DNA of 64,000 nucleotides from a bacterium (GTDB lineage: Bacteria; Patescibacteriota; Minisyncoccia; Phycocordibacterales; UBA5272), in assembly GCA_043771335.1 (NCBI GenBank), contig JAYVHM010000003.1, positions 29,268-93,267 on the forward strand, in the 5' to 3' direction. A model generated the notes under the pieces. It was not told the origin of the DNA and did no database searches. It saw only the letters and a program-made list of their open reading frames with translations. A program made the position numbers and the translations under genes. Below, piece by piece: positions 1,956 through 8,528 of the stretch (positions are counted from its first letter, which is position 1; the number at the start of each line of letters is the position of its first letter).

Positions 1956-2507
1956 TTACTTTCTACTCTTATTATAAGCAAAGTAGCTGATTATAATAAA
2001 AGGCACAAATACACATATACTCATAAAAGGTATGGTCACAAATCCAAATACAGCACCTATCGGAGATTCACTACAGGCTATGCCTTCCGCATCACAAGGT
2101 AGTGATATCAGGTCATTTTTTACGTATTTAAGATAATGGTAATAATAATGACCACTAGCAATGTATAGACCAAAAGCTCCTATCGTAAGTATATAATAAT
2201 GTGCTAATTTATCCTTAATCAAGATACTAATAGCAGATATGATACCAATACTGTAAATAAGCATACGTTGTTGCCAACACAGAGGGCAGACAGGAGTGTT
2301 ATAGTATTCCTGATAAATTATAGCTCCAAATATACTAATTAGAAAAATAATAAAAATACTTTTCATAAAAACATTGTAATCAAGGCTAAGTATATTATTC
2401 TTTATTTTTTTGTTAGCAAAATAAAAAAACAAGACAAGTAAAGATAATATTAATAAAGTGAGACATCCCAGAGAGACGATTATTGAAAAGTTTTCTTGAG
2501 TTAACAT
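1956..2507 (-). CDS. Disulfide bond formation protein B-like membrane oxidoreductase (DsbB/BdbC family)
   Basis: Multi-TM protein with a CPLCWQQR motif (C-x-L-C-x-x-QR as in BdbC/DsbB) and a second Cys pair CDAEGIAC in a later loop. Confidence 0.55.
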   Translation of the reverse strand: MLTQENFSIIVSLGCLTLLILSLLVLFFYFANKKIKNNILSLDYNVFMKSIFIIFLISIFGAIIYQEYYNTPVCPLCWQQRMLIYSIGIISAISILIKDKLAHYYILTIGAFGLYIASGHYYYHYLKYVKNDLISLPCDAEGIACSESPIGAVFGFVTIPFMSICVFVPFIIISYFAYNKSRK

Positions 2508-2576
2508 GTTCTAATTATATCATGTTTTTTTAGACCCAGCTACTAATATTTACATTTATTTTAATGTTTTTCATGT

Positions 2577-2593
2577 AAAGTAAACTTTACTTT
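2577..2593. promoter_or_regulatory. Perfect 8-1-8 palindrome AAAGTAAAcTTTACTTT overlapping the -35 region of the XRE regulator promoter
   Basis: Exact inverted repeat. It lies 17 nt upstream of TATAAT (2609-2614) of the leaderless HTH gene, in the divergent region shared with the DsbB-like gene. Confidence 0.4.
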
Positions 2594-2620
2594 ATAAAAA
2601 GTGTATAGTATAATATTAAT

Positions 2621-2830
2621 ATGCAAGCAGAGCTAAAAAACAAAGTAAAAGATTTTAGAAATGAACTAGGGCTGACTCAAGAAGATCTTGCAGAAAAGAT
2701 TAGTGTTACTCGCCAGACAATTATCTCAATAGAGAAGGGCGTATATGCACCAAGTGTCACACTAGCTATTTTGTTATGTAAGACTTTGAAAAAAGAAGTG
2801 GAACAAGTTTTTAGTGTGAGCAAAAAATAA
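2621..2830 (+). CDS. XRE-family (Cro/C1-type) HTH transcriptional regulator
   Basis: 69 aa. LGLTQEDLAEKISVTRQTIISIEKG is the canonical XRE HTH. Confidence 0.8.
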   Translation: MQAELKNKVKDFRNELGLTQEDLAEKISVTRQTIISIEKGVYAPSVTLAILLCKTLKKEVEQVFSVSKK

Positions 2831-2862
2831 ATTAAAATCTATAATAAATATTAATAATAAAT

Positions 2863-3240
2863 ATGCAAAAAATAATAACAAATAAAGTAAAAATAAATAA
2901 CAACACAAAAGAATATATCTTAGGATTCTCAATATTAACCACTTTTGTAATTTACTATTTTGATTTACTGAAAGATGGAATGGTAATGAGTGGATTAATC
3001 GCAGTATTGGTAATGCTATACATCAGTGTATTATGGAATGAGAACGTGAATGATGAGCGTGATGAATATATCAGAAGTAAAGTAGATAGGTATTTATATA
3101 TTATAACTATGAGTTTATTTTTGATGGACATAATATATAAAACATTCTCACATCAGAGTTATATGAGTGAGATTATAATATTAACTATTTTAGCTTTATC
3201 TAAAATATTTTTATCAAAATTAGTTAAGAGCAATAATTAA
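2863..3240 (+). CDS. Hypothetical membrane protein
   Basis: 125 aa with 3-4 hydrophobic helices. Confidence 0.45.
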   Translation: MQKIITNKVKINNNTKEYILGFSILTTFVIYYFDLLKDGMVMSGLIAVLVMLYISVLWNENVNDERDEYIRSKVDRYLYIITMSLFLMDIIYKTFSHQSYMSEIIILTILALSKIFLSKLVKSNN

Positions 3241-3263
3241 GAATATAAAATAAGTATAAAAAT

Positions 3264-3722
3264 ATGCAAGAAGAAAATAAAACACAAGATAATAATAATC
3301 TACAAGGTAGTGTAGAAAAACCAAAATATAATATTACTTTTGCGCAGCCTCAAAAGTTTAACTTCAAAGATTTATTAAAAGTTTCTAGCATTCCAGTTTT
3401 TATCGCTTCACTCTGCTGTTTGTCGCCTATTATATTGTTATCATTAGGATTAGTCACGCTCAGTGCTGCCAGTGAGCTGGCTGATGTTTTTTATGGTACA
3501 TACAGGTGGATTTTTCGTGCTGTTGGTCTCGTCTCCCTGATCATTGCTTTTACTTTTTATCTGCGTAGAGCAGGAGTATGTACACTAGACGATGTCAAAA
3601 AAAGAAGAAATGAAATATTAAATAAGTTAGTCTTAACATTAATTGTTGGAGTCCTGAGCTATGTATTTTTCCTATACGTAGTAGTGCATTATATAGGAGT
3701 ATTTTTAAATGTTTGGAAATAA
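3264..3722 (+). CDS. Hypothetical membrane protein
   Basis: 152 aa, polar N-terminus then three hydrophobic helices. Confidence 0.45.
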   Translation: MQEENKTQDNNNLQGSVEKPKYNITFAQPQKFNFKDLLKVSSIPVFIASLCCLSPIILLSLGLVTLSAASELADVFYGTYRWIFRAVGLVSLIIAFTFYLRRAGVCTLDDVKKRRNEILNKLVLTLIVGVLSYVFFLYVVVHYIGVFLNVWK

Positions 3723-3741
3723 TTTATAAAGCAGAAAGTTA

Positions 3742-3775
3742 TACACATAACAAATGTAAAGAATACTTTACATTT
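3742..3775 (+). terminator. AT-rich palindrome aaatgtaaag-aata-ctttacattt plus T-run (terminator or operator)
   Basis: Perfect 10-bp inverted repeat followed by atttttttat. Confidence 0.4.
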
Positions 3776-3852
3776 ATTTTTTTATAGAGTATACTTTAAA
3801 TATGAGTGAAAGCTCTGTGTAAGTTTTTAAAAATTAACAGTTAAGTAAAAAT

Positions 3853-4254
3853 ATGAAATTAAATAAATTAGGAGCAGGTATTTTATTAGCAGGAATCATC
3901 ACTGGTTCATCTTTTGCTATGGAGATGATGGCAACAGGCACAATGATGAATCATGATGGGATGAAAGCAAGTGGCACCATGATGAAGCATTCTGATATGC
4001 TTATGGAAATAAAAGACACAATGGTAAAATGTTTAGATGAGAAAAAAGCAACAAGATTAGAAATTAAGAAATTTCAAAAAGAAAATGGTCTAGATCAGGC
4101 TGGGGTTATAGGTAAGAAAACAAAAGCTAAATTAGTAAAATTAGGATGTATAAAAGAGATGAAAACAGAGATGATGGATATGAAAAAAGACACAATGATG
4201 AAAAAAATGGATGACAAAATGATGAAGGCTTCTACGACTATGATGCATAATTAG
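3853..4254 (+). CDS. Secreted methionine-rich protein (about 20% Met) with GTMM(N/K)H(D/S)xM repeats and a central peptidoglycan-binding-like segment
   Basis: Signal peptide [22 protein letters not shown]. The mature part has at least 23 Met in about 111 aa ([52 protein letters not shown]). The segment [23 protein letters not shown] resembles a PG_binding_1 core. Confidence 0.6.
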
Positions 4255-4266
4255 TTTTGATATATA

Positions 4267-4297
4267 AAGTAAATATCTATAAAGATATTTACTTTAT
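4267..4297 (+). promoter_or_regulatory. Hairpin aagtaaatatc-tataaa-gatatttactt immediately upstream of the msrAB ATG
   Basis: 11-bp inverted repeat ending 4 nt before the ATG at 4299. Weak terminator, attenuator or operator. Confidence 0.3.
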
Positions 4298-4298
4298 T

Positions 4299-5498
4299 AT
4301 GTTAAAAATAAACATAAAATATATATTATTAATAACATTATTTGGCTTTGGCTTTTTTGTATTATATAATACTTACAAGAGAGCTCACTCGCCACAATAT
4401 AAAAGAGAAATAAATATGCAAGAAGAAATAAATACAAAAATAAATAATGGAGAATATCAAAAGGTAGTTTTTGCTGGTGGGTGTTTTTGGTGCACTGAGT
4501 CAGAGTTCAACCATGCGACAGGTATTATATCTGCTGTGTCAGGTTACGCAGACAGTAGAAAAGAGAACCCGACTTATGAAGAAGTTAGTAGTGAAAAAGT
4601 TAAAGCTCGTGAAGCAGTAGAGGTTATCTATGATCCTACAAAAATAACTTTTGAAAATCTACTTCAGAAATATTGGACACACATCGATCCAGCTGATGAG
4701 GGTGGTCAATTTGGAGACAGAGGATATCAGTACACTTCTGCTATATATTACACTGCAGATGAGCAAAAGTCTTTGTCAGAAAAAAGTAAGAATAAAATAG
4801 AAGAAATTAAAAAAATAAAAGTAGCAACAGAAATATTGCCTTTTAATAATTTTTATCCAGCTGAAGAATATCATCAAGATTATAAAGACAAGAATCCTAT
4901 AAGGTATAATACCTACAGAGAAGGGTCAGGTAGAAATAGCTATATCAGACTTCATTGGCAAGATGGTAGCACTACGACAAAATCTATTTTTCTTGAAGAC
5001 AATATATTAAATATAAAGAATAAAAATGAAAACAAAAGAGAGATTAAAACTTGGCTTAATTTTGATTCAAAAATAAAAGAAGAAAAATTAAAAAACCTTA
5101 CACCTCTTCAATATGATGTAACACAAAAAGAGGGCACAGAAAAATCTTTTCAAAATGAATACGAAGCAAACAAAGAAGTTGGCATATACGTAGACATAGT
5201 AAGCGGAGAGCCACTCTTTCTGTCAAAAGATAAGTATGATAGTGGTACGGGCTGGCCAAGCTTTAGTTTGCCGATTAATGAATCAGCACTGACATTACAC
5301 ATTGATAATGGTATATTTACAAGCAGGACAGAAGTTAGGAGTAAGATAGCTGATTCACATCTGGGACATGTATTTGATGATGGGCCAAAAGATAGAGGAG
5401 GTAAGAGATACTGTATGAACTCAGCCAGTATGAGATTTATAAAGTTGATAGACATGGAAACAGAGGGATATTTGGAATATATAGAGCTTTTAAAATAA
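4299..5498 (+). CDS. msrAB: Membrane-anchored bifunctional peptide methionine sulfoxide reductase MsrA-MsrB
   Basis: N-terminal TM anchor ([23 protein letters not shown]). MsrA active site GGCFWCTE, then MsrB domain with [10 protein letters not shown] and RYCMNSAS. The track ORF begins at an upstream TTG; the first ATG is at 4299. Confidence 0.85.
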
Positions 5499-5517
5499 AA
5501 AATACAAATACAAAACC

Positions 5518-5546
5518 TAAAAACACTCGCATAGCTGAGTGTTTTT
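5518..5546 (+). terminator. Terminator after msrAB overlapping the next promoter
   Basis: Hairpin aaaacactcgcatagctgagtgtttt. Its T-run runs into TGTTATAAT (5545-5553) for the next gene. Confidence 0.55.
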
Positions 5547-5584
5547 TGTTATAATATACAGATAATAATAATACGCTAAAAAAA

Positions 5585-6175
5585 ATGACAGAAAATACAA
5601 ATACAAATATATTAATAATTACCGCCCACCCGTCATCAACAGGATTTACACACAAAATAGCTGTTGCTTATAAGCAAGGAGCAGAGAAAAAAGGTTACAA
5701 AGTAGAGGTTTTAGATCTCTACAAAACAGATTTAAAGCAAGGGTATTTTTGTTTTGAATACGATGATCAGAATATTTGTGACAAAGAATTAGCTACAAGA
5801 AAAATAATGCAAGACAAGATAATGTTAGCTAATGAGATAGTTTTTGTGGCACCAATGTGGTGGGGGACAGTGCCAGCTATTATGAAGAATTGGATAGACA
5901 TGAATTTCACTTCACATTTTTCTCACAAATATGTAGATGGAAAATTAGTAAAGATGCTACATGAAAAATCAGCCAGAGTGTATATGACTAGTGACGCTCC
6001 AGCATTTGTGTATTGGTTTGCTTTCAATCCATATGCTAGAATATTTTCGTTTAATCTATTTGATTTTGTAGGTATGAAAAATAACGGGATAAAATTATTT
6101 GGTAATTTTAGAAAAAGAACAGAAGAAGAAAAAGAAAAGTATTTAGAGAGTATAAGAGAAGAGGCTTCTAAATAG
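5585..6175 (+). CDS. Flavodoxin-like fold NAD(P)H-dependent oxidoreductase
   Basis: ILIITAHPSSTGFTHKIAVAYKQGAEKKGYKVEVLDLYK matches the Flavodoxin_2 / NAD(P)H dehydrogenase (quinone) pattern. Confidence 0.6.
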   Translation: MTENTNTNILIITAHPSSTGFTHKIAVAYKQGAEKKGYKVEVLDLYKTDLKQGYFCFEYDDQNICDKELATRKIMQDKIMLANEIVFVAPMWWGTVPAIMKNWIDMNFTSHFSHKYVDGKLVKMLHEKSARVYMTSDAPAFVYWFAFNPYARIFSFNLFDFVGMKNNGIKLFGNFRKRTEEEKEKYLESIREEASK

Positions 6176-6187
6176 ATATTAAACATT

Positions 6188-6220
6188 AAAAATCACTCCT
6201 TAGGGAGTGATTTTTGTTTT
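6188..6220. terminator. Bidirectional terminator
   Basis: aaatcactccttagggagtgattt hairpin plus T-run between convergent genes. Confidence 0.6.
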
Positions 6221-6222
6221 CA

Positions 6223-7191
6223 CTACTTTGTGTGTAATGTCTTATATATATCTTCTACAGCACGCACAGCATCACCGCTGGCGATGTTATTTTGATGATA
6301 TAGTATATTGGTGCAGTCACCAGCGGCCCATACATTATTCATATCTTTTCCTTCAGTGTCTACACATTTTTGTGACCAAGGATTAATTTTCACTTTTCCA
6401 TATTCATCCAGAGTCACAACTTCCTTACACCAAGAAGTCGCAGGTATTTGTCCTATTTCTACAAAGACGCCACCAACTTCTAATTTTACCACTTCATTCC
6501 CAGTAGAATAACTAAGACCATTTAAGAACTTTTCGCCATGTATTTCTGTGGGTATTGCATTTGTTATTAATTTGAACTTTGTATTTGATTTTAACTTATC
6601 TATTGTTATCTGGTCCGCACGAGGCTCTGTGCGTGAGAGCAGGGTTACACTCTTACAATAAGCCAGTAGCTGAGCCGCTGATTCAAAGCCAGCATTGCCT
6701 CCACCGACAACAACAACATCCATATCAGTGTAGAATGGTCCATCACAAGTAGCACAGTATGTTAACCCCTTATGGTCATATTCTGCAGCACCAGCAACTT
6801 CTAATTTTCTTCTTATAGATCCTGTTACAACGAGTAACCCTTTTCCTGTAAACACTTCACCATTTTCTAATTTAATTTTTGTAACTTCTTCATCATTCTC
6901 TACTCTTATTTTCTCGGCGCTTATAACATTGTTACCTGTTTTTATCGTTAGGAACTCACCAGCGTATTCCTCAGTGTGAGTTTTAAAACTCTTAGCCAGG
7001 TCAGCACCACTGATGTGTGGAGTTCCTATCCAGTTTTGTATATCATCTGAGACTACGCTTTGTCCTCCCCATTCTTTTAATACGAGCAGTGTCTTTAGTC
7101 TTTTTCTGGCTGCGTATACGCTAGCACTGGCTCCTGCTGGCCCACCACCAACTATTATTAGGTCGTATATATTTTGTGTATTTTCTTGCAT
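6223..7191 (-). CDS. trxB: Thioredoxin-disulfide reductase
   Basis: FAD motif DLIIVGGGPAGASASVYAARK, redox-active CATCDG, second Rossmann VVVVGGGNAGFESA. Length 322 aa. Confidence 0.85.
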   Translation of the reverse strand: MQENTQNIYDLIIVGGGPAGASASVYAARKRLKTLLVLKEWGGQSVVSDDIQNWIGTPHISGADLAKSFKTHTEEYAGEFLTIKTGNNVISAEKIRVENDEEVTKIKLENGEVFTGKGLLVVTGSIRRKLEVAGAAEYDHKGLTYCATCDGPFYTDMDVVVVGGGNAGFESAAQLLAYCKSVTLLSRTEPRADQITIDKLKSNTKFKLITNAIPTEIHGEKFLNGLSYSTGNEVVKLEVGGVFVEIGQIPATSWCKEVVTLDEYGKVKINPWSQKCVDTEGKDMNNVWAAGDCTNILYHQNNIASGDAVRAVEDIYKTLHTK

Positions 7192-7212
7192 ATTTTTATT
7201 ATGTATATTATA

Positions 7213-7242
7213 ACAAAAATCACTCGTGATTACGAGTGATTT
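7213..7242 (-). terminator. Terminator downstream of ftsZ
   Basis: aaatcactcgtaatcacgagtgattt hairpin on the minus strand followed by a T-run. Confidence 0.55.
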
Positions 7243-7262
7243 TGATTGTATTTTTAAAAGTA

Positions 7263-8528
7263 TTACTTCTTTTTATTCCTCATAAGGAATGGTGGAAGTG
7301 ATCCCCAGTCATCATCTTCATCTTCATCAACCGTTGCAGCTTTTGTTTTTTTATCTTCTACATAATTTGCGACTTTCTCATCTTTTTCATTCGTAGCTAA
7401 TGCAGAACTTTCTTCTACTTCATGTTCTATTCTTTTTGATTCTTCAGTTTTTCTTAGACTAAAAAGTTTTGCAGGTTTTTCTTCTTCCACTTCTGCTTCT
7501 CTTTCGCCCATTCTTCTTATCGTTTCTTCTTTCGCATAAGCACTTCCAGCTTCACGATTAGACCTTAGTGAAGAGGGGAAGCCTGTTGCTATTACAGTTA
7601 CTTTTATTTCATCTTTTTTAAGAGTGTCATCATTGTAAATACCGTAAATTATCTTAGCTTCATCACTTACTGATTCTGTGATTATGCGACTAGCATCAGC
7701 TGTCTCGAGCAATGTTAAGTCTTCATTACCGAATATAACGTATAAGAGACCTGTCGCGTTATTAATAGAAACATCTAATAGAGGATTAGATATTGCAGCA
7801 TTAGCGGCATCTATGGCACGATTCTCACCAGCAGCCTTACCCATACCAAATAATGCAGTTCCAGAATCTTTTAATATTCTACGTATGTCGTTAAAGTCTA
7901 GATTCATCTTTCCAGAAAATCTAATAATTTCTGAGATTCCTTCTACTGCTTGTTTTAGTATTTCGTCACACATAGCAAAAGCTTGGGTAACTGTAGTGTT
8001 TTTGTCAACAACAGATAATACGCGATCGTTTGGAATCGTGATTAATGCATCTACTTCTGCTTCTAATTCAGCTAATCCTTTTTCAGCTAATTTCATTCTC
8101 TGAGCTCCTTCAAAAAAGAATGGCTTTGTAGCAACAGCAACTGTTAATATGCCTTCATTTTTACAAATAGCAGCAACAACAGGAGCAGCTCCGGTAAATG
8201 TTCCACCACCACAACCTCCTACTATAAATACCATATCAGCACCTTTTATGGCTTCCATTATTTCTTCTCTTGTTTCTTCGGCAGAACGCTTACCAACTTC
8301 TGGGTCCATACCAGCCCCAAGACCACGAGTAAGATTTTTACCAATGTGTATTTTTTTCTCAGCCAGACAGTTGTGCAGGTCCTGAGTGTCAGTGTTAATA
8401 GCGATGTAGTCAACACCTTTTAATTTTGCTTCTATGATGTGGTTCAAAGCATTTTTTCCAGAACCACCGATACCGATTACTTTTATATTTGCTGCGGTTT
8501 CTACAGACAGGTTGTTTATTTTGGCCAT
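7263..8528 (-). CDS. ftsZ: Cell division protein FtsZ
   Basis: IKVIGIGGSGKNALNHI and tubulin-like GGGTFTG signature. Acidic/basic C-terminal tail. Confidence 0.9.
   Translation of the reverse strand: MAKINNLSVETAANIKVIGIGGSGKNALNHIIEAKLKGVDYIAINTDTQDLHNCLAEKKIHIGKNLTRGLGAGMDPEVGKRSAEETREEIMEAIKGADMVFIVGGCGGGTFTGAAPVVAAICKNEGILTVAVATKPFFFEGAQRMKLAEKGLAELEAEVDALITIPNDRVLSVVDKNTTVTQAFAMCDEILKQAVEGISEIIRFSGKMNLDFNDIRRILKDSGTALFGMGKAAGENRAIDAANAAISNPLLDVSINNATGLLYVIFGNEDLTLLETADASRIITESVSDEAKIIYGIYNDDTLKKDEIKVTVIATGFPSSLRSNREAGSAYAKEETIRRMGEREAEVEEEKPAKLFSLRKTEESKRIEHEVEESSALATNEKDEKVANYVEDKKTKAATVDEDEDDDWGSLPPFLMRNKKK

Follow-up and report, generated by a model that had tools for sequence, protein, structure and literature searches.

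A methionine-rich protein with a peptidoglycan-binding-like core encoded beside a membrane-anchored MsrA-MsrB fusion in Patescibacteria

Why would a bacterium with a reduced genome make a small secreted protein that is about one-fifth methionine, and why does its gene stand directly upstream of a methionine sulfoxide reductase (Msr) gene? The stretch of DNA analysed here (64,000 nucleotides, hereafter the window) belongs to the Patescibacteria, or Candidate Phyla Radiation (CPR), a group of very small and mostly uncultured episymbionts whose metabolism is minimal, and we know of essentially nothing on how their exposed surface survives oxidants. An earlier note on the window had described a secreted methionine-rich (Met-rich) protein with a peptidoglycan (PG)-binding-like segment, encoded next to an extracytoplasmic fusion of MsrA and MsrB (MsrAB). 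Two mechanisms were offered: a sacrificial sink for reactive oxygen species (ROS) that is recycled by Msr, or a Cu(I)-binding protein whose Met ligands need repair. The comparisons presented below strongly support the note's functional link between the two proteins through gene linkage, a shared candidate operator, a thioredoxin (Trx) fusion and CcdA/redoxin neighbors. Of the two mechanisms, the sink, with the Met-rich protein as a dedicated Msr substrate, appears to fit better. We consider it slightly more probable than its negation that the protein is a wall-tethered sacrificial methionine buffer, recycled by extracytoplasmic MsrAB as a functional analogue of the proteobacterial MrpX-MsrP system.

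The methionine-rich protein and its family

The open reading frame (ORF) for the Met-rich protein is present as described (Table 1). Its 133-residue precursor contains 23 Met (17.3%) and 24 Lys, and the reported content of about 20% Met is right for the mature protein left after removal of the predicted signal peptide (22 of 111 residues, 19.8%), in which 35% of the residues are charged. The 44 window ORFs of at least 150 codons have a mean Met content of 2.5% and a maximum of 4.8%, and the excess in the Met-rich protein corresponds to a binomial tail probability of 4e-13. In the set of 66 non-overlapping ORFs with 70 codons or more, it is the sole outlier; the runner-up, at 9.2% Met, encodes a DUF1761 membrane protein 2.5 kb upstream of the module (888-1313, + strand). 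The repeated GTMM and MMKKM motifs are likewise all in the sequence, as GTMMNHDGM (residues 29-37), GTMMKHSDM (41-49) and MMKKM (115-119). The N-terminus reads as a Sec-type signal peptide, with a basic n-region (MKLNK), a 13-residue hydrophobic core and a c-region (SSFA) that places small residues at -3 and -1 of a predicted cut before MEMM; there is no lipobox. This junction, xxA followed by M(E/D)M, is kept throughout the family.

The PG-binding-like segment is real but partial. The only Pfam match of the protein is to PG_binding_1 (residues 66-94, E 7.9e-4), and the core motif FQKxNGLxxxGxxGxxTxAKL corresponds to the second half of this domain (PF01471). The match covers model positions 29-57 of a three-helix domain of about 57 residues and scores 20.0 bits against a gathering threshold of 23, so the window copy has half a domain. 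The core motif is shared with the PG_binding_1 modules of lytic enzymes and L,D-transpeptidases, and some relatives of the Met-rich protein carry the whole domain. Unlike those wall modules, the Met-rich protein has no catalytic domain and its core is flanked by Met-rich arms; in the window copy, the halved domain is also bracketed by two Cys residues.

Relatives were collected in two ways. A word-indexed search yielded 12, and an exhaustive profile search of 1.84 billion representatives gave 889 matches, nearly all of which are ordinary multi-repeat PG_binding_1 wall proteins that match in the core only (profile positions ~67-100). About 14 representative clusters are both full-length and Met-rich. 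The best 150 profile matches consist of CPR-type Met-rich proteins and PG_binding_1 proteins only, and the family profile picks up thousands of PG_binding_1 repeats as well as PG-binding domains in the PDB. The common layout is a signal peptide, a Met/Lys/Asp-rich arm, a PG_binding_1 core and a second Met-rich arm, which often terminates in MMKA(S/T)DTMM. Mature Met content stays at 15-24% in nearly all members (n = 23), despite 39-83% identity, many indels and differences in arm length. The exceptions are the L018 protein (~10%, with the signal peptide still included) and the fasciclin fusion P0010 (7.7%).

Full-length PG_binding_1 domains are found in relatives P0008, P0168, P0185, P0220 and P0268, which score 40-52 bits and thus exceed the Pfam threshold, and the L009 relative has two copies. 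The short subfamily to which the window protein belongs retains only the second half of the domain, together with invariant Cys60 and Cys98, which the full-domain members lack. It is a reasonable inference that a Cys60-Cys98 disulfide stabilizes the half-domain. A DsbB-like membrane protein (CPLC) is encoded divergently from the regulator operon described below (1956-2507, - strand) and was not seen in the other loci; it may be the maker of this putative disulfide.

Linkage to msrAB and a shared candidate operator

To place the gene in context, 64 loci were fetched with the MsrAB protein as query, 29 of them from CPR genomes; gene-order maps were counted over 30 CPR loci. In agreement with the note's assignment to a reduced-genome lineage, the GTDB genomes with the closest msrAB loci are without exception Patescibacteria/CPR metagenome-assembled genomes, labelled Paceibacterota, Parcubacteria, 'Saccharibacteria' and Gracilibacteria. 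A hidden Markov model of the family detects a Met-rich member in 11 of the 29 CPR msrAB loci and in the window. The Met-rich gene lies directly upstream of msrAB in the window, L001, L003, L012 and L069. In L005, L006, L009, L011, L018, L022, L028 and L030, it comes first in a same-strand array and is followed by genes for an Xre-type helix-turn-helix (HTH) regulator and a DUF6773-like membrane protein and then msrAB, sometimes with a CcdA-redoxin gene inserted between DUF6773 and msrAB. The L069 locus, fetched through the Met-rich proteins, has the order HTH, DUF6773, DsbD_TM-redoxin, VTT, flavoprotein, Met-rich gene and msrA. The earlier note had named a lack of conservation next to msrAB among the observations that would refute its proposal, and this refutation did not come about: msrAB is found within ~2.5 kb downstream of the Met-rich gene, on the same strand, in 13 of the 13 contigs that reach far enough. 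Proteobacterial loci encoding MsrA with a transmembrane (TM) anchor (L029 and L031-L064; Micavibrio, Bdellovibrionales) have no Met-rich neighbors, and checking for an alternative genetic code (table 25) in loci without a Met-rich gene added no family members.

The Met-rich and regulator genes also share a sequence element. An 18-bp palindrome, TGTAAAG-N4-CTTTACA, occurs twice in the window, upstream of the HTH gene and upstream of the Met-rich gene. At up to two mismatches, all fetched DNA (725 kb) contains 27 palindromes, of which 26 stand just ahead of a Met-rich, HTH or VTT gene, frequently as two sites 28 bp apart. The CPR loci (345 kb) contain 21 matches at up to one mismatch; 60 composition-matched control palindromes with permuted half-sites gave a mean of 0.12 and a maximum of 2 matches in the same DNA. 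The palindrome is present in all 13 loci with the HTH/DUF6773 pair (the window, L001, L005, L006, L008, L009, L011-L013, L018, L022, L028 and L030) and in none of the 17 loci without it. Essentially every family member is preceded by it, including the Met-rich gene of every locus that was checked in the independently retrieved set (L065-L067, L069-L071), and the VTT genes of L006 and L018 have copies of their own (at 1358 and 2661, respectively). Because the palindrome is restricted to HTH/DUF6773 loci, we regard it as a candidate operator. We infer that the 69-residue Xre protein binds it and thereby co-regulates two operons, HTH-DUF6773-MerT-like and metRich-msrAB. The DUF6773-like gene is always paired with the HTH gene, and its product is possibly a membrane sensor or partner of the regulator. 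Both window palindromes overlap -35-like sequences, but a scan for sigma-70-type promoters returned 24 matches where 22.5 are expected by chance, and the -35/-10 assignments are therefore suggestive only. Rfam models had no matches in region 2400-5700 at E values up to 1, including SAM/Met riboswitches and T-boxes in the leaders.

Table 1. Features of the module in the window, in order of position.
Feature	Position	Strand	Remarks
Candidate operator 1, palindrome TGTAAAGTAAACTTTACT	2574..2591	+	one mismatch to TGTAAAG-N4-CTTTACA; 30 nt upstream of the HTH gene; overlaps -35-like TTTACT
Xre-type HTH_3 regulator, 69 aa	2621..2830	+	Pfam HTH_3 E 1.4e-15; kept beside DUF6773 and msrAB in 11 loci
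DUF6773-like multi-pass membrane protein, 125 aa	2863..3240	+	Pfam DUF6773 E 3.2e-5, below gathering; in 13 loci
MerT-like 3-TM protein, 152 aa	3264..3722	+	between DUF6773 and Met-rich genes; candidate transmembrane thiol relay for MsrAB
Candidate operator 2, perfect palindrome TGTAAAGAATACTTTACA	3755..3772	+	arms extend 3749-3778; 81 nt upstream of the Met-rich gene; overlaps the -35 of a promoter-like site, TTTACA 3767-3772 / TATACT 3790-3795
Met-rich ORF	3853-4254	+	ATG start, 133 aa
Predicted signal peptide	3853..3918	+	residues 1-22; predicted cut between SFA and ME, read from sequence
N-terminal Met-rich segment	3919..4023	+	residues 23-57; predicted disordered, AlphaFold2 pLDDT <50
Core mini-domain	4024..4146	+	residues 58-98; C-terminal half of PG_binding_1, with Cys60/Cys98 at its ends
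C-terminal Met-rich segment and stop codon	4147..4254	+	residues 99-133; end conserved
MsrA-MsrB fusion	4299..5498	+	ORF opens at TTG 4257; likely start ATG 4299 (MLKINIK...) per orthologues; 44 nt from the Met-rich ORF
MsrAB N-terminal TM segment	~4311-4367	+	hydrophobic, conserved
MsrA domain	4461-4910	+	GCFWC; Pfam PMSR (PF01625) E 1.7e-53, 181 bits
MsrB domain	5097-5441	+	RYCMNS; Pfam SelR (PF01641) E 1.2e-44, 151 bits; SGTGWPSF, recycling Cys absent
GC-containing hairpin with T-run	5519..5546	.	3' of msrAB; likely terminator of the metRich-msrAB transcript
Low-molecular-mass thioredoxin reductase (CATC)	6223..7191	-	likely ultimate NADPH-linked electron source

MsrAB and its supply of electrons

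The window gene encodes a genuine MsrA-MsrB fusion with a membrane anchor, of the kind known from Streptococcus pneumoniae, in which both domains score above threshold and have their catalytic Cys; its PDB match is 7e43 (E 3e-74). All 28 CPR MsrABs compared share GCFWC, with a CxxC-type resolving Cys, RYC(M/L)NS, with the MsrB catalytic Cys, and SGTGWPSF at the place where many MsrBs have the recycling Cys, and most contain three Cys in total. The N-terminal TM segment is kept in 27 of 27 relatives, usually behind a short K/R-rich tail of the kind seen in signal anchors. The note's fusion with an N-terminal anchor stands. Its extracytoplasmic orientation is putative, and is the best reading in view of the context, namely the secreted partner protein, Trx fused to a secreted protein and CcdA-redoxin genes. 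Directly after the anchor, most CPR orthologues carry the motif YNTYxRAxSP (window 4311-4400), at which the electron donor could dock.

Several relatives connect the Met-rich protein itself to thiol-redox chemistry. In P0268/P0281, the signal peptide, Met-rich arm, PG_binding_1 core and second Met-rich arm are followed by a C-terminal thioredoxin domain (WCPTC; Pfam Thioredoxin E 4e-9), and the fusion gene (L065 367-1182; L066 2260-3099) has two palindromes before it and HTH and DUF6773 genes after it. A CcdA/DsbD_TM-redoxin fusion lies within the module in L006, L030 and L069, where it holds the slot of the MerT-like gene, and in L071 the Met-rich gene comes after DsbD_2 and redoxin/Thioredoxin_10 genes. 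In S. pneumoniae, it is established that electrons reach surface-exposed MsrAB2 through CcdA and an exported Trx (CcdA-Etrx-MsrAB2, PMC3914529), and Trx-CcdA is genetically linked to msrAB in Fusobacterium nucleatum (Trx-CcdA-MsrAB-ModRS, PMC9239216). The CPR loci resemble these systems in having an MsrAB fusion with a single N-terminal TM anchor and in clustering msrAB with a regulator and electron-supply genes, of which CcdA/DsbD_TM-redoxin in the four loci just named are examples. Unlike the CPR module, those systems have no dedicated gene for a Met-rich substrate. They also differ in their regulators, in having CcdA/Etrx where the window has a MerT-like three-Cys protein, and in MsrB, which lacks the recycling Cys here.

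The MerT-like protein has an invariant ASLCCLSP motif in TM1 and a single invariant Cys in a cytoplasmic loop (GxCTxD..RRNE). Its gene adjoins msrAB in 16 of the 30 CPR loci (within the range L001-L025), and the family comprises more than 741 homologues, none of which has a name. With MerT/MerF mercuric transporters it shares three TM segments, vicinal Cys residues in TM1 and weak profile similarity. We nevertheless rejected identity with MerT: the scores are below threshold (Pfam MerT, 28.9 bits against a gathering value of 32.9; NCBIfam MerT, 33.6 bits against a cutoff of 150), the cytoplasmic loop has one Cys instead of a pair, and the gene is linked to msrAB rather than to merA, merP or merR, with mer genes absent. 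The protein may be an uncharacterized transmembrane thiol relay rather than a metal transporter; that such a relay is fed by Trx and thioredoxin reductase (TrxR) is speculative. A MerT-like-Trx fusion was sought among the top homologues, and the one longer protein (P0044) proved to have an over-extended start.

In 10 other loci (L006-L009, L013, L015, L018, L022, L024 and L028), msrAB is followed by genes for a VTT/DedA protein (~182 residues) and a ~475-residue class-I flavoprotein disulfide reductase (DLD/MerA/RclA-like); the pair is also found in L069 (3974-6005). This pair and the MerT-like gene are nearly mutually exclusive, occurring together in L012 only. A divergent EVE-domain gene recurs immediately upstream of the Met-rich/HTH genes in VTT-type loci (L006-L009, L028). 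The trxR gene neighbors the module in several loci, which may partly reflect synteny with ftsZ. Between msrAB and trxR, the window has a gene similar to Flavodoxin_2 / NAD(P)H-dependent FMN reductases (5585-6175, + strand), which occupies the same position in L001 and L003 and is followed by a perfect bidirectional terminator hairpin (6187-6216).

Proposed role and competing explanations

We propose that the 133-residue protein would be exported by Sec and held in the cell wall through its PG_binding_1-derived core, with two flexible Met/Lys/Asp-rich arms exposed. ROS or reactive chlorine species at the cell surface would oxidize arm Met residues to methionine sulfoxide, and the co-transcribed, membrane-anchored MsrAB, with its catalytic domains outside, would reduce both S and R sulfoxides back to Met. 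Together, the two proteins would protect the envelope as an oxidant sink that works catalytically and can be renewed. Reducing power would pass across the membrane from cytoplasmic NADPH/TrxR, through the CcdA-redoxin fusion in sister genomes and presumably through the MerT-like three-Cys protein in the window. The module would be inducible, with the Xre-type repressor and the DUF6773 membrane protein acting through palindromes bound at the -35 boxes of both operons. We favor the sink because of the redox links, the apparently inducible promoter, arms that conserve composition and not sequence, the MrpX precedent, and work in Bacillus cereus, where exoprotein Met residues recycled by MsrAB act as an antioxidant (PMC5526929). 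Because every function is read from sequence and genomic context, our confidence in this mechanism stays only a little above even.

The closest precedent is MrpX of Azospira suillum and other Proteobacteria, a secreted protein with 20% Met and 44% charged residues that HOCl oxidizes and a periplasmic Msr restores (Melnyk et al. 2015; PMC4436054). Like MrpX-YedYZ/MsrPQ, the CPR module encodes a small, secreted, charged protein of ~20% Met beside an Msr whose location is probably extracytoplasmic, together with a putative dedicated stress regulator, and the proposed logic of sacrificial Met oxidation and enzymatic regeneration is the same. The components differ. The reductase is a thiol-based MsrA-MsrB fusion rather than the molybdoenzyme MsrP with the haem protein MsrQ, and the Met-rich protein has a PG-binding core and is presumably wall-tethered, whereas MrpX is soluble. 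Xre-HTH and DUF6773 with a palindromic candidate operator replace SigF/NrsF, and the host is a monoderm-like CPR bacterium rather than a proteobacterium. No YedY/YedZ gene was found in the loci examined. Because the MsrP/MsrQ and SigF/NrsF context is absent and the likeness is functional, without demonstrated homology, we did not file the Met-rich protein as a member of the MrpX family.

A number of observations weigh against a wall-tethered, MsrAB-recycled sink. Wall binding is uncertain for the window copy because its half domain scores below gathering. An AlphaFold2 model built from a 12-sequence alignment has low confidence, with a mean predicted local distance difference test score (pLDDT) of 51 and a predicted template modelling score of 0.28; it has two short core helices (68-77 and 88-96, pLDDT ~65-70) and disordered arms. 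The charge distribution around the window MsrAB anchor is ambiguous under the positive-inside rule, with two Lys before the TM segment and four Lys/Arg after it. No gene for CcdA or an exported Trx was found in the 64-kb window, and electron supply there therefore rests on the uncharacterized MerT-like protein. Where the Met-rich gene is missing, as it is in around half of the CPR msrAB loci, the HTH/DUF6773 pair is missing too. The Met-rich gene is thus an accessory that travels with the regulated msrAB module, not an obligate partner. Finally, the N- and C-terminal motifs of the family are strictly conserved, which suggests specific recognition rather than bulk scavenging.

This last point leads to a different possibility, in which the Met-rich arms of a wall protein act as an oxidation-controlled switch and do not scavenge, and MsrAB resets the switch. 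The arms could give an extracellular redox signal to DUF6773/HTH, or a Met-bristle surface could bind or hold hydrophobic ligands, as in Ffh-M or Hsp21. Besides the conserved termini, this explanation can draw on the company that the Met-rich gene keeps, since it occurs almost always with HTH-DUF6773 (11 of the 13 loci that carry the pair) and not with msrAB alone. Two relatives, P0010 and P0178, are fused to fasciclin, an adhesion domain, and Met pairs recur in the family at a regular 6-7 residue periodicity. On the other hand, an amphipathic Met-bristle helix in the C-terminal arm was tried and rejected, as its helical hydrophobic moment does not exceed that of shuffled sequences (p = 0.4), and we have no precedent for such a signalling ligand. 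The length and sequence of the arms vary greatly while their composition is kept, which is typical of a bulk property. Taken together, we regard the switch as unlikely.

Even less probable, in our view, is the note's second mechanism, that of metal binding. Here the arms would serve the wall as a buffer or chaperone for Cu(I) or another soft metal, and the task of MsrAB would be limited to keeping their thioether ligands in the reduced state. Binding of Cu(I) by Met-rich tracts is known from Ctr1, CueO, PcoA/CopA and CopM, and MxM and MxxM are the spacings typical of Cu(I) Mets motifs. The window protein has two MMxHxxM-like motifs, the order MerT-like gene then secreted protein recalls merT-merP, and the alternative partner oxidoreductase is MerA/RclA-like; in this scheme, the MerT-like protein encoded upstream might act as the matching metal transporter, the two forming a merT-merP-like pair. 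Secreted DUF305/CopM-like proteins with Met-rich N-terminal tracts are also encoded near the module in L001 (1249-1698, 16% Met) and L018 (7506-8006, 9% Met), the latter directly 3' of an extra MsrA-only gene (6885-7472); these may represent either a further class of Met-rich proteins associated with Msr or a connection to copper. The window protein resembles such periplasmic copper binders in being secreted and having a Met-rich N-terminal tract, but it has neither a DUF305 domain nor a conserved His.

What weakens the copper explanation is the want of a conserved His and the scarcity of MxM/MxxM spacings. About a third of family members have no His, none has Trp, and Met-Met spacings fall to 0.53x at lag 2 (MxM) and 0.43x at lag 3 (MxxM); lag 1 (1.95x) and lags 6-7 (~1.8x) dominate instead. 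The search that the note had suggested for CusF/CopC/PcoC-like models, here including HMA, returned no matches in Pfam or NCBIfam. The MerT-like and Met-rich genes occur independently of each other, the module includes no copper gene, and no copA, copZ, csoR or other copper homeostasis gene recurs in the 30 loci. The domain fused to the Met-rich protein in P0268/P0281 is a thioredoxin and not a metal domain. A sink role and a copper role could coexist. A chance low-complexity ORF, or a functionless by-product of ATG/AAA-rich simple sequence, might be suspected in a window of 34.5% GC with a short 12-nt tandem repeat inside the Met-rich ORF (4189-4225), but conservation effectively refutes this: more than 20 divergent genomes keep the frame, the signal peptide, the core domain and the position of the gene, and the candidate operator upstream is dedicated and conserved.

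The sacrificial buffer thus remains the explanation that we favor. The earlier note had supposed that such a pairing was unreported in reduced-genome lineages, and literature searches agree: nothing was found on a Met-rich protein combined with PG binding and Msr, on MerT-like proteins with Msr, or on a characterized Patescibacteria Msr system. The PG-binding Met-rich partner, its occurrence in the CPR, the Xre/DUF6773 operator system and the candidate electron partners other than CcdA are new features, undescribed in the literature searched. More tentatively, these parts may belong to a self-contained CPR envelope antioxidant regulon, composed of a PG-tethered Met-rich shield, a three-Cys surface MsrAB, an Xre/DUF6773 sensor-repressor with its operator and the MerT-like protein (CC...C) as a minimal transmembrane electron conduit. 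If so, the MerT-like family would shuttle thiol electrons and would not transport metals.

To our knowledge, a sacrificial-methionine strategy has been proven so far for MrpX-MsrP only. If our reading of the Met-rich protein is correct, then this strategy would have evolved independently outside the Proteobacteria, with another class of enzyme and in a wall-anchored form. The module yields testable parts, namely a candidate operator for the orphan Xre/DUF6773 pair and putative natural Met-rich substrates for MsrAB, and it offers two candidate routes, MerT-like or DedA with a flavoprotein, by which reducing power may cross the membrane without CcdA/DsbD.

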